Positions 14,461 to 57,962 of a stretch of DNA of 64,000 bases are shown here, piece by piece (positions within the stretch are counted from its first letter, which is position 1; every line of letters starts with the position of its first letter). Made by a program: the position numbers and the translations under genes. The notes beneath the pieces were generated by a model. That model searched no databases, was not told the DNA's origin, and saw only the letters and a list, made by a program, of their open reading frames with translations. The stretch spans positions 137,379 to 201,378 of the forward strand of contig CALSBI010000010.1 in the NCBI GenBank assembly GCA_943373145.1, read 5' to 3'. This DNA is from Chitinophaga pinensis. GTDB taxonomy: Bacteria > Bacteroidota > Bacteroidia > Chitinophagales > Chitinophagaceae.

Positions 14461-14623
14461 GTAATGGATAATGGATTGAAGGTAGGGAATTTATTGATAT
14501 GTGCGGTGGGTCGTTGGTCGTTGGCCGTTGACCGATGGCCGAGCGTAGTCGACAGTTGACGGTTGACAGGAGGGACAAAGCCGTTGGCCGCAACTCATAA
14601 CCCATCACTCATAACTCATAACT
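14461..14623. repeat. intergenic heptamer-repeat mosaic (instance a)
   Basis: The runs are gtaatggataatggattg, then gggtcgttggtcgttggccgttgaccgatggccg, then gacagttgacggttgac, then actcataacccatcactcataactcataact. Confidence 0.85.
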
Positions 14624-14637
14624 ATATCCAGGGCCAT

Positions 14638-14669
14638 AAAAAAAGAGCCCCCGACCTTACGGCCGAGGG
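14638..14669 (-). terminator. intrinsic terminator of the 2714-aa adhesin gene
   Basis: On the minus strand, ccctcggcc-gtaa-ggtcggggg (9 bp with G-U pairs) is followed by ctcttttttt. Confidence 0.6.
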
Positions 14670-14709
14670 ACATCCTTTGTTTGTGCTTGGTTATCAAACC
14701 TCTTTATGA

Positions 14710-55850: not shown

Positions 55851-56094
55851 CCCATGTTAACAAAACATTATCTCTATTTTAGGCATCAACAATTATGTTG
55901 ATCTTGTGTTGAAGACCTGATAGGCGCCTATACTTTCCAAACCAGACAACTTGTATCATCTAATAACCTCGCTTGGGGTTGGGGCTCATTGCTAGCTAAC
56001 GGTAATTATCTACCATCAACGGGCTAACCAACGTACCATGTTATTGCTTGATACAAGCGGTCTATCATTTTAACCAAATTAAAAATTAAGAATT

Positions 56095-57606
56095 ATGAAA
56101 AAAATCAAGACTACATCCTTGTGCCTAACCATGTTGCTAATTGGCATGGGCGCACATGCCCAAAACACTTTTTCCAAAGGTGCTGTAAACACCGCCATCC
56201 CCCTCGGTAATTTTGAAGTATTCCGTGCCGAAAATGGCTTGATTGCGCATCGGGTGGCCGGCACCATTGGCGCTTTTAATGCGGGCGACCAGTGGATTGG
56301 TATTGGACGGCCCCTATCCCGCTTATATGGTTACCGGGCACAGTGGGCCGGTCAGGCACTTACGCTTAGTTTGCAAGACCGCGACGGCAACTTGGTCACT
56401 ACCAACGACAAGGATGCAGAACTGCAATGGGGCAACCAAAGCGGTACGCAGTTTAATTTTAATTACATCAACAACCCTAATTTAGCCACTGGCTTTACCA
56501 GGGTAATGCAACTGCGCGACAATGGCCAGATATTTATGTCGAACGACCCCAATGAATTTGGCAGCACATTTGGCAAATTGTATGTAAGGGCCGGTGCTGC
56601 CGGTCGCAACATCGGTATCAATGTGTCGGCCAATGGCACCAGCAGTGATGGCGGTTATGGGTTATACACTTCAGTAGGCGGTACCAGTCCGCTGGGTGTT
56701 TACGGTGTATATGGATTTGCAGGTGCCGAAAATTCACCCATCAATGCAGGCATTGTGGGCCGCTTGAACTTTGACCCCTCTATTGAAAGCAATACGGCCA
56801 ACTATGCCGTTTTTGGAGATGCCGGTGGCGCAACCGCCTCCAATTTTTGGGCGGGCTATTTTAATGGCCGTACTTTTTGCAATGCGGGTGTATGGACAAG
56901 TTCTGATGCCAAATTAAAAACGAATGTAAAAAGCGAAACAGATGCATTGACCAAAATCATGCAGTTGCGCCCAGCTACTTACAATTACAAAAAAGCCGAT
57001 TTCCCCGGCATGTCTTTGCCAACAGAATTACAGCATGGATTTATTGCACAGGAAATGGAAGCTGTTTTTCCTGAATTTGTAACCGATGTTAAAGGGCCCA
57101 AAGGTTTTGACAAGGCCGGTAAATTAGAGGGCATGATGGATTTTAAAGCCATTAACTACACGGCCCTGATTCCGGTGCTTACCAGTGCCATACAGCAACA
57201 GCAGCAGCAGTTGGAAACACAAAAGCAGGAATTGGCGCAATACCAGCAATTAACCGAAAAGCTATTGCAAAAAGTTACTGCCATGGAACAGGTACTGAGT
57301 GCCAAAACAACCAATGATAAACCCGCCGACAATGGTAACGCTGCTTTTTTGATGCAGAATACACCCAACCCTGCTAGCGGCAATACGGCCATCCGCTACT
57401 TTATCCCTTCCGATAAAGCGGGTACAGCGGCCATTACCGTTACCGATGCCGGCGGACGTCAAGTAATGCAGTTTGCTAACCTTACCAAAGGCACACTCGC
57501 TACCATCAATATCAATGCGGGTAATTTAAAACCGGGCACTTATGTTTATAGCCTATTGCTCGATGGCGCTGTATTGGAAACCCGTAAGTTGGTGATTGCA
57601 GAATAA
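56095..57606 (+). CDS. tail-fiber-like protein with peptidase S74 intramolecular chaperone domain and T9SS type-A C-terminal sorting domain
   Basis: It has a signal peptide. The S74-type block is SDAKLKTNVKSETDALTKIMQLRPATYNYKK...HGFIAQEMEAVFPEFV. A coiled-coil QQQQQQLETQKQELAQYQ follows. The C-terminus is NTPNPASGNTAIRYF...GTYVYSLLLDGAVLETRKLV. Confidence 0.85.
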   Translation: MKKIKTTSLCLTMLLIGMGAHAQNTFSKGAVNTAIPLGNFEVFRAENGLIAHRVAGTIGAFNAGDQWIGIGRPLSRLYGYRAQWAGQALTLSLQDRDGNLVTTNDKDAELQWGNQSGTQFNFNYINNPNLATGFTRVMQLRDNGQIFMSNDPNEFGSTFGKLYVRAGAAGRNIGINVSANGTSSDGGYGLYTSVGGTSPLGVYGVYGFAGAENSPINAGIVGRLNFDPSIESNTANYAVFGDAGGATASNFWAGYFNGRTFCNAGVWTSSDAKLKTNVKSETDALTKIMQLRPATYNYKKADFPGMSLPTELQHGFIAQEMEAVFPEFVTDVKGPKGFDKAGKLEGMMDFKAINYTALIPVLTSAIQQQQQQLETQKQELAQYQQLTEKLLQKVTAMEQVLSAKTTNDKPADNGNAAFLMQNTPNPASGNTAIRYFIPSDKAGTAAITVTDAGGRQVMQFANLTKGTLATININAGNLKPGTYVYSLLLDGAVLETRKLVIAE

Positions 57607-57620
57607 GGGATTGCAACAGG

Positions 57621-57962
57621 GGATGAGGCTGGATACTGGATACTGGATGCTGGTTGCTTGATGCTGGATACTTGATACTGGATACTGGATATGGTTAGGC
57701 AAGTATCTAGCATCTGCTATCTATTATCTGCTATCTAGTATCTGCCATCTAGTATCCGCCATCCAGCATCTGCTATCTAGTATCCAGCCCCCAGCATCCG
57801 CTATCAAAAAAAAGAGGCTGTCTCAAAAGGACAGCCTCTTTTTTATTATATCACCGGAGACGTTGGTCGTGGGTCGTTGACCGTTGGCCGTTGGCCGCTA
57901 ACCGTTGGCCGTGGGCGCAAACTTTCAACTCTCCACTTTCAACTTTCAACTCGCAACTCTCC
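57621..57962. repeat. intergenic heptamer-repeat mosaic (instance j), interrupted by a bidirectional terminator
   Basis: It has a ggatact/ggatgct run and a ctgctat/ctagtat/ccagcat run. After the terminator come a cgttggt/cgttgac/cgttggc run and a tcaactt/tcaactc run. Confidence 0.9.
57806..57845. terminator. bidirectional intrinsic terminator between convergent genes
   Basis: The sequence is aaaaaaa-agaggctgtc-tcaaaag-gacagcctct-tttttt, a 10-bp perfect stem flanked by an A-run and a T-run. Confidence 0.85.

Follow-up and report, generated by a model that had tools for sequence, protein, structure and literature searches.

We describe here a set of intergenic tandem repeats in a 64,000-nt stretch of DNA deposited as Chitinophaga pinensis (GenBank assembly GCA_943373145.1, contig CALSBI010000010.1, positions 137,379 to 201,378 of the forward strand). 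This whole stretch is referred to as the window and is numbered from its first letter. Its repeats are short arrays of 7-nt words, and they occur at high local density, with ten array-bearing gaps between genes inside 44 kb. Judged from their sequences, the host genes are those of an uncultured or poorly represented, soil-type lineage of the Bacteroidota, family Chitinophagaceae. The Pfam matches of the window proteins include the C-terminal sorting domain of the type IX secretion system (T9SS) and DUF6261, and the nearest relatives of the PGI protein come from Ferruginibacter and other Chitinophagaceae, at 78% or less. PGI-based scans of genome and metagenome contigs likewise gave no relative above 78%. 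Syntenic contigs of close relatives (L165-L170, from ENA and JGI assemblies) were retrieved through 90% protein clusters and exact-protein contig look-ups, and their genes are 90-93% identical to those of the window in nucleotide sequence. No Rfam match at the gathering threshold was found anywhere in the window, and a tRNA/tmRNA scan of it found none. Scans for sigma-70 promoters and simple terminators showed no excess over shuffles; the promoter tool lacks Bacteroidota promoters, and the terminator at 57806-57845 was missed.

The arrays draw on seven word families that recur across the gaps of the window, either way round, which bears out the common vocabulary described by the first-pass annotation of this DNA. 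Units pass in register from one family to another, and some arrays have higher-order units of 14, 21 or 22 nt. The families comprise the following words:

F1: GTTGACC, GTTGGCC, GATGACC
F2: GGATACT, TGATACT, GGATGCT
F3: CCATTAT
F4: GGGTATT, GGGAATT
F5: AACTTTC
F6: AACTCAT
F7: TAGTCCA, TGGACCA

The gaps are built as follows, with the strand given where one was assigned; HE stands for a small hairpin element treated further below.

14462..14625: arrays of TAATGGA (x2), of GGTCGTT/GGCCGTT/GACCGAT with CAGTTGA/CGGTTGA (F1) and of AACTCAT (F6), with G-rich words to the left and C-rich words to the right
About 14640-14675: terminator-like hairpin of the minus-strand gene 14710..
32247..32317, plus strand: 9-nt array GGATTACAC, about 7.7 units, beginning 22 nt past the stop of 31763..32224(+); also at the orthologous site in L165
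Within 32316..32463: internally palindromic F7 array (TAGTCCA ... TGGACTA), followed by CTAGTAT/CCAGTAT (F2 reverse complement), then a 22-nt higher-order repeat of CCATTAT-type units, which at its end overlaps the epimerase gene 32449..33402(-) over the TAG stop and the final codons
33457..33641: eight F1 units of GATGACC/GTTGACC, an AGTACTT-type array and CCATTAT units, in this order; at 33579-33641 CCATTAT drifts in register into CCAGCAT/CCAGTAT (TATCCAT to TATCCAG)
33644..33695, plus strand: HE copy in conserved sequence upstream of the PGI start
35363-35406 and 35456-35507 (within 35363..35611): F4 arrays GGGAATT/GGGTATT, the first overlapping the PGI stop codon
35582-35610: F4 reverse complement AATACCC, abutting the stop of 35612..35998(-); between it and the F4 arrays, a small terminator-like hairpin GACAG-TAGG-CTGTC-TTTT
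37384..37409, plus strand: 8-nt array ATGTGCTG, about 3.2 units, also in L165 and L168
37468..37681: F2 array GGATACT/TGATACT (14 units), HE copy 37574-37622 (plus strand) and F2 reverse complement TATCCAG, an inverted pair that reaches the stop of 37682..38938(-)
Within 40882..41068: F1 array CGTTGAC (8 units), minus-strand HE copy 40959-41010 inside a GTTGACA array, then the motif GACGGTTGACGG-T6-GAATTGCTACTGA and a short F1 remnant
Within 43575..43925: compound mosaic of an F1 array, two modules [GTTGACR]n-T6/7-(G/T)AATTGCTACT and a palindromic F7 array GGTCCAT...ATGGACC; at 43859-43923 CCATTAT (CATTATC) gradually becomes AACTTTC (F5) without loss of register, as far as the stop of 43924..44541(-)
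Within 54365..54607: F2 array organised in higher-order units of 21 nt (ACTGGGGACTTGATACTTGAT), directly followed by the F2 reverse complement, HE copy 54484-54535 (plus strand), a second GC-rich hairpin, and CAGCATC/CGCTATC arrays that reach the stop of 54608..55303(-)
55649..55739: short F4 array GGGGATT/GGGAATT/GGGTATT, then HE copy 55688-55739 (plus strand); single reverse-complement copies of the 9-mer are scattered onward to about 55850
57625..57805: ten F2 units and, at a distance of 9-33 nt, about 14 units of the reverse complement, predicted to form a hairpin whose arms measure about 85 nt; the pair lies past the stop of 56095..57606(+) and ahead of the terminator
57806..57845: canonical bidirectional intrinsic terminator A8-GAGGCTGTC-loop-GACAGCCTC-T6, not an array, kept in L170
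57859..57962: F1 array CGTTGGC/CGTTGAC, then F5 array AACTTTC/AACTCTC, abutting the stop of 57963..63947(-)

The preference for a period of 7 was evident from a self-match scan that required at least 80% match per 21-nt segment. At lag 7 it returned 33 runs within the window, while lags 4-6 and 8-12 gave 0-2; 50 Markov-1 shuffles gave no lag-7 run at all. Tandem Repeats Finder reported period 7 or its multiples (14, 21, 28 or 35) in all ten listed gaps, with a largest array of 13.7 units, and also confirmed the 9-nt and 8-nt arrays, which had been recognized as words earlier. Under a strict criterion applied to coding and intergenic classes, arrays covered 837 of 7,412 intergenic nt versus 45 of 56,588 coding nt, the latter mostly array ends that overrun stop codons, in line with the earlier statement that coding sequence does not tolerate a 7-nt period. 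The arrays also generate spurious open reading frames (ORFs) and false N-terminal extensions, as the first-pass annotation had stated: the true start of ORF 38957..40990 is at 40804, with a signal peptide beginning MKSVITIG, and that of ORF 13394..14608 is at 14452.

All ten gaps contain arrays, yet the description of these gaps as consisting almost entirely of them was too strong, their share being nearer to one half. The union of Tandem Repeats Finder calls amounts to 1,392 nt, and its share is 21-74% in nine gaps and 4% in the tenth (gap 55304-56094). Within the latter, the interval 55663-55850 contains a single short array of heptamers, along with a hairpin element and scattered lone copies of the 9-mer. 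The remainder of the gaps is made up of conserved promoter and 5' untranslated region (5'UTR) sequence, intrinsic terminators and small hairpin elements.

Run ERR9580614 yields four Logan contigs that are contained in the window without a mismatch, at 28763-32455, 33583-35399, 35375-37522 and 54529-55822. Whole array gaps are spanned by two of these contigs, although the contigs may share source reads with the window. Six of the eight contig ends fall inside or at the edge of array tracts, and such breakage of short-read contigs is what an assembly or sequencing artefact might look like. However, the Logan contigs match the array sequence exactly, two full gaps included, and the ENA and JGI assemblies of relatives hold arrays at the orthologous gaps, so that the chance of an artefact is practically negligible.

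Comparison with the relatives L165-L170 gives a direct view of the rapid turnover of the arrays. Arrays of the same families occupy the same gaps as in the window, and 15 of 24 exact arrays of the relatives fall within the 27 word classes of the window, against a chance expectation of 2.3%. Unit counts, variants and their order differ. The array gaps are 70-86% identical to those of the relatives, with 35-86 indel positions, and array-free spacer is 84-96% identical; the differences in unit count were observed between relatives at 90-93% gene identity. Whole modules are replaced as well: between the gap 54202-54607 of the window and its counterpart in L170 (7688-8035), an F2/HE module has given way to a module of F4 and the 9-mer. 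In the window the F4 and 9-mer module lies on the opposite side of the same gene, and the F2/HE module is found in another gap of L170.

Farther away, the neighbourhoods of PGI genes in other Bacteroidota (806 kb) contain 26 lag-7 runs versus 0-2 at other lags, and similar arrays are found in genome loci of Bacteroidota, among them L007 and L013 (Flavisolibacter and Ginsengibacter). A vocabulary common to these distant genomes was considered and rejected, for only 3 of 103 arrays fall in the word classes of the window, which is about chance. The only clear vocabulary match beyond the genus is on a distant Bacteroidota metagenome contig (L146, 1527-1724), where inverted arrays of TAGTCCA and TGGACTA, TCGACTA (F7-like) abut both stops of a convergent gene pair. 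Period-8 arrays of TTATTGGT and CCAAATNA stand in place of period 7 in two metagenome-assembled genomes (MAGs), one of Sediminibacterium (L020, 168-324) and one of the Chitinophagaceae (L033, 2390-2492), so that not every member of the family prefers the same unit length.

These patterns bear on the idea that the words are binding sites, either for a nucleoid protein on double-stranded DNA or for a protein of the cold-shock, RRM or S1 type on single-stranded RNA, each protomer occupying 7 nt and selection keeping the vocabulary. A small vocabulary common to many gaps and kept across the genus would fit such a scheme, as would the 21-nt super-period of several arrays, equal to two helical turns, and CspB-type proteins do bind heptamer repeats with one protein per unit (PMC4679880). 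Yet there are at least seven unrelated word families with highly degenerate units, a gap can change its family between close relatives, other genera use other words with sharing at the chance level just given, and no candidate protein was identified. We consider this explanation quite unlikely.

Within the gaps, the arrays keep close to stop codons. In nine of the 11 array gaps they lie 0-20 nt from one, and in two places (32449 and 35371) they extend over the final codons of the gene. Their distance to a start codon is 50-350 nt, and the promoter-proximal 50-180 nt are array-free and about 90% conserved in the relatives. This arrangement speaks to the possibility that the arrays are contingency loci for phase variation, in which changes of unit number switch the flanking genes. 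Unit numbers do differ between relatives, and the flanking genes include some for large surface or T9SS-secreted proteins. Still, the arrays lie on the stop-codon side instead of in 5' coding regions or between promoter hexamers, the sequence next to the promoter is free of them and conserved, and housekeeping genes such as those for PGI, an epimerase and a rhodanese are among the neighbours. Phase variation is accordingly very improbable.

A rule of polarity, on which the first-pass annotation was silent, governs the orientation of the words: when a gap is entered 5' to 3' from either side, a G-rich, C-poor arm precedes a C-rich arm. The G-C skew of an array correlates with its position in the gap (Spearman -0.78, p = 3e-7); on the plus strand, 13 of 14 arrays in left halves are G-rich and 13 of 16 in right halves are C-rich. 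Polarity is the same for gene pairs of the --, +- and -+ types and is thus set by position in the gap, not by gene orientation. In the gap 57607-57962 the bidirectional terminator has one instance of the pattern to its left and another to its right. Arrays adjacent to stop codons are G-rich and C-poor in the mRNA sense at all nine flanks of this kind in the window, and such flanks are G-rich in 16 of 20 cases at unrelated Bacteroidota loci. Since G-rich words come first from both sides, convergent inverted pairs and long imperfect hairpins are frequent. Pairs of this type are formed by F2 in four gaps and by F4 in one, and the F7 arrays are palindromic internally; this inverted pairing had also gone unmentioned before.

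Folding potential was compared with shuffles for each gap. The strongest values were z = -10 for 57607-57962 and -6.6 for 35372-35611, followed by -5.5 to -3.4 for the gaps 37289, 54202 and 43501. The gaps 14453, 33403 and 40880 fold no better than shuffles, the gap 32225 is weakly better, and array-free gaps reach -4 to -6 through ordinary terminators. At orthologous gaps the z values are not conserved, changing from -4 to +1.4 in gap H and from -1 to -5 in gap B. Arms of local pairs are 72-75% complementary versus 80-89% for arms taken from different gaps. Selection for local hairpins as a general rule was rejected on these grounds: z is near zero in three array gaps and weak in a fourth, it is unconserved at orthologues, and local complementarity does not exceed that across gaps. 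In a separate observation, the array-free gap 4773-5354 (582 nt) folds much better than shuffles on its two strands (z = -5.7 and -4.1). Rfam gave no match there, and the gap may contain several terminators or a structured RNA that is not annotated.

The same data bear on a role of the arrays at the 3' ends of transcripts. Inverted arrays would act as stem-loops of the 3' untranslated region (3'UTR) that stop or pause polymerase, block 3' exonucleases or insulate transcription units, as has been suggested for REP/BIME and the STRR hairpins, and with the G-rich arm in front, the C-rich arm would pair immediately and so deny Rho a loading site. In five of the ten gaps folding is far stronger than in shuffles, two gaps place arrays between a stop codon and a canonical terminator, and polarity follows the position in the gap. 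Moreover, STRR hairpins may stabilise transcripts (PMC2670836), and the Xanthomonas repeats are transcribed (PMC4692102). Against this stand the gaps that fold no better, or only weakly better, than shuffles, the comparable z values of array-free gaps, the lack of conservation of hairpin potential, the arms that are not more complementary locally than across gaps, and the presence of canonical terminators alongside the arrays. We regard a 3'-end role as a possible, if doubtful, explanation.

Small hairpin elements embedded in the arrays form a further layer that the first-pass annotation did not mention. The HE is about 34-52 nt long, with a stem CACGCC-loop-GGCGTG of 5-7 bp that shows some covariation, followed by (G/A)TGTCGGC-N3-GCCTCC. 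All five copies of the window lie in or touch a heptamer array. Close relatives (L165, L167, L168, L169 and L170) have 11 copies in 79 kb, and no copy was found across 866 kb of distant relatives. The contrast between the filled site 40940-41045 and the empty site 43630-43700, two paralogous modules, is clean, and for this reason the HE looks like a tiny insertion element. A part of a promoter or a structured RNA was also considered, and five copies do not permit such a classification. In L168 a 63-nt unit of F2 and HE occurs three times. A second element, TGCCCGACTRCGTCATTCAGGCGG (24 nt with a 3-nt GCC duplication), has inserted twice at AAGCC^GT in L170, once within the loop of an HE (L170 11575-11720 compared with window 54470-54575), and the loop of another HE copy holds a different 20-nt insert (L169 9741-9806). 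The motif [GTTGACG]n-T6-GAATTGCTACTGA has three occurrences in the window. Modules of the form [GTTGACG]n-T6/7-(G/T)AATTGCTACTGA were noted at 41004-41033, 43655-43686 and 43735-43769, as well as in L169; the genes that flank them are on the minus strand. Such a module resembles an intrinsic terminator because GUUGAC of the plus strand can pair with itself through G.U.

The composite nature of these modules raises the question of whether they travel as units, similar to non-autonomous elements of the MITE or REPIN kind, with array arms around an internal hairpin element moved by a transposase encoded elsewhere and the vocabulary spread by transposition. Composite modules do recur at separate loci of the window and of the relatives, the filled and empty sites of the HE, 34-38 nt in this comparison, are clean, the 24-nt element has twice entered the same target with its 3-nt duplication, and the HE is specific to the lineage. 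But the arrays themselves have no defined termini or target-site duplications, the length and content of their arms vary continuously, and no transposase or RAYT gene was found among the window ORFs scanned. Mobility is seen for the small hairpin inserts only, not for arrays, and transposition of whole modules appears unlikely.

The arrays closely resemble several known systems. Heptanucleotide tandem repeats named STRR (short tandemly repeated repetitive sequences) were reportedly described in cyanobacteria by Mazel et al. in 1990. STRR genomes contain several words, which are intergenic and capable of forming hairpins, alongside very small dispersed insertion elements. The window shares intergenic heptamers, several words, hairpins and tiny inserts with them, although its host belongs to the Bacteroidota and not to the cyanobacteria; the STRR words of heterocystous cyanobacteria (CCCCAGT, TTGGTCA and CAACAGT) have no tandem copy in the window. 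Elhai et al. are said to have reported small dispersed repeats (SDR) of Nostoc in 2008, and the 24-38-nt hairpin inserts seen here are similarly tiny and nested but have no sequence relationship to SDR and come from another phylum.

The closest match is with the heptamers GGGAATC of Xanthomonas and GGGGAYT of Nostoc PCC 7120, which are about 90% intergenic (Rehm et al. 2015, PMC4692102). According to the same study, these repeats are degenerate, with 2 to over 20 units per array, lie on average 28 nt from the upstream ORF versus 160 nt to the next one, form 70-75 convergent inverted pairs, are underrepresented between divergent genes, and vary greatly in length and sequence among close species, with no identified function. 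The window arrays have all of these traits. They differ in drawing on at least seven word families, compared with one each in Xanthomonas and Nostoc, in belonging to another phylum and in their very high local density. No tandem GGGAATC, GGGGATT or GGGGACT occurs in the window, and the F4 words (GGGAATT, GGGTATT and GGGGATT) are only similar; nor was a canonical G-quadruplex motif (G3+N1-7 x4) found inside the arrays.

The long simple sequence repeats (LSSR) surveyed by Mrazek et al. in 2007, as reported in PMC4679880 and PMC4692102, have 5-11-nt units, most commonly heptanucleotides, and are far longer than expected by chance. In these accounts, units that are not a multiple of three are kept out of genes and polymerase slippage is the proposed origin; PMC4692102 also cites Mrazek for the view that 7 nt fits the contact between polymerase and DNA and so favours slippage. 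As LSSR are presented there, the window agrees with them in unit length, excess and exclusion from coding sequence. The richest genomes of the survey, as given in the same two papers, are those of Burkholderia, cyanobacteria, actinobacteria and Xanthomonas, and Chitinophagaceae are not highlighted in these accounts. MacGregor (2015, PMC4679880) described TAACTGA repeats from Beggiatoaceae, cyanobacteria and five Bacteroidetes, together with mixed "assemblages of heptamer repeats". Gramella, Aequorivita, Elizabethkingia and Flexibacter are named among the latter, and it was noted that close relatives have no arrays or different ones and that contigs end in repeats (PMC4679880). The window is similar to these assemblages in placing several heptamers in one intergenic spacer. 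However, the TAACTGA repeats of Beggiatoaceae lie just upstream of start codons, whereas the window arrays avoid starts and abut stops, and TAACTGA is present in the window as five single copies, none in tandem.

REP, BIME and REPIN sequences of Enterobacteria and Pseudomonas (PMC3116915) are also intergenic few-motif mosaics at gene 3' ends with inversions that form hairpins, but REP are imperfect palindromes of 20-40 nt with defined ends and a RAYT transposase, in contrast to the tandem 7-mers of the window. No RAYT-like match was found among ten window proteins scanned. CRISPR repeats are 23-50 nt long and separated by unique spacers of similar length, whereas the window has head-to-tail 7-mers without spacers, and the exclusion of both CRISPR and REP/BIME by the first-pass annotation is upheld. 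Its suggestion of an unnamed, possibly new family is not, given that the kind is already documented (STRR, LSSR, the Xanthomonas and Nostoc heptamers and the Bacteroidetes heptamer assemblages). Our literature search turned up no specific report of such heptamers for Chitinophagaceae, Flavobacteria or Sphingobacteria. As the named words are not in tandem here and canonical G-quadruplexes are absent from the arrays, the window belongs to a known kind of repeat but to no named word family. It is a dense example of a known repeat class in a new lineage, not a new kind of element.

Given divergence dominated by indels, in-register drift, exclusion from ORFs and promoters, and exchange of modules, we favour, with a probability of about 0.72, the reading of the arrays as compound, imperfect heptanucleotide microsatellites of the LSSR/STRR class, presumably made by slippage, exchanged by recombination, peppered with hairpin elements and filtered by selection. 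From the sequence comparisons we infer that slipped-strand mispairing at replication would gain and lose 7-nt units, and that point-mutated units would be amplified in register, each word grading into its neighbour. Arrays and composite modules (array, small hairpin element and T-run motif) would be copied or swapped between gaps by recombination, and recombination between similar arrays would maintain one vocabulary across the genome and the genus. Their distribution suggests that selection purges arrays from ORFs, 7 being no multiple of 3, and from the promoter and 5'UTR segment of 50-180 nt; surviving arrays would then occupy the stop-codon side of the gaps. This analysis saw no evidence for a site-specific function of any individual array. 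Any effect is most likely generic, for example that of a structured 3'UTR spacer or an insulating spacer.

Several points weigh against the microsatellite reading. Slippage alone leaves unexplained both the dominance of a few words genome-wide and the strict G-first polarity, the one feature that a purely neutral model does not predict, and these two features could reflect function or an unseen binding factor. The arrays persist in the same gaps over about 8-10% divergence, which could be due to inheritance or to selection. In addition, the Logan contigs all derive from one run and are exact to the window, and the gene map combines ORF lists, Pfam hits and gene calls of the relatives instead of the output of a trained gene finder. 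For the polarity, possible causes are selection against exposed C-rich RNA, which would load Rho; a mutational or expansion bias tied to transcription or R-loops; and a real boundary function. The last could be extended to a general scheme, in which G-first arrays fill gaps as a transcription boundary element, by way of Rho-evading hairpins or G-rich RNA:DNA hybrids, and are renewed by slippage and by nested hairpin elements that home to arrays. The idea was prompted by the G-first architecture common to the Chitinophagaceae, other Bacteroidota and the published Xanthomonas and Nostoc data, and we offer it as speculative and unlikely.

Repeats and motifs of other types were noted in the window. 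At 55419-55599, upstream of the DUF6261 gene, there is a 40/41-nt tandem repeat of 4.4 units, each consisting of a 6-bp hairpin (e.g. GGCTAC-TAA-GTAGCC) and a T-rich tail. L170 retains four units at about 8830-9030 with different stem sequences, a compensatory change, and the array could be a tandem regulatory or terminator-like one. The motif TATCACCCG(Y)TTGGGGGATTTT(T)GGG occurs at 40867-40890 and 43560-43583, upstream of 38957..40804(-) and 41899..43500(-), and is kept in a relative; its GGGGATTTTG core at 46716-46740 adjoins the start of a histidine-kinase gene. It may be a shared regulatory site. Coding sequence has repeat regions of its own at 15300-21100, 24400-25700, 41358-41836 and 4380-4726. 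They include units of about 354-378 nt in a 2,714-aa protein, common to a 741-aa SdrD_B/T9SS protein, 75-nt units in 41090..41902, and units of 18, 21, 42 and 126 nt in ORF 4287..4772.

To our knowledge, heptanucleotide arrays have been on record since 1990 in cyanobacteria and since 2007-2015 in several other phyla, with neither their function nor the mechanism of their spreading established. The lineage described here adds a dense, multi-family case together with syntenic relatives at about 90-93% identity. In these relatives one sees directly a turnover of unit number, of order and even of word family, with position and vocabulary preserved. Two questions thereby become testable: whether one is dealing with selfish microsatellites or with boundary elements, and what keeps the polarity in force. 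In practical terms, the annotation of Bacteroidota MAGs should mask these arrays, because they break short-read assemblies and create false ORFs and N-terminal extensions.

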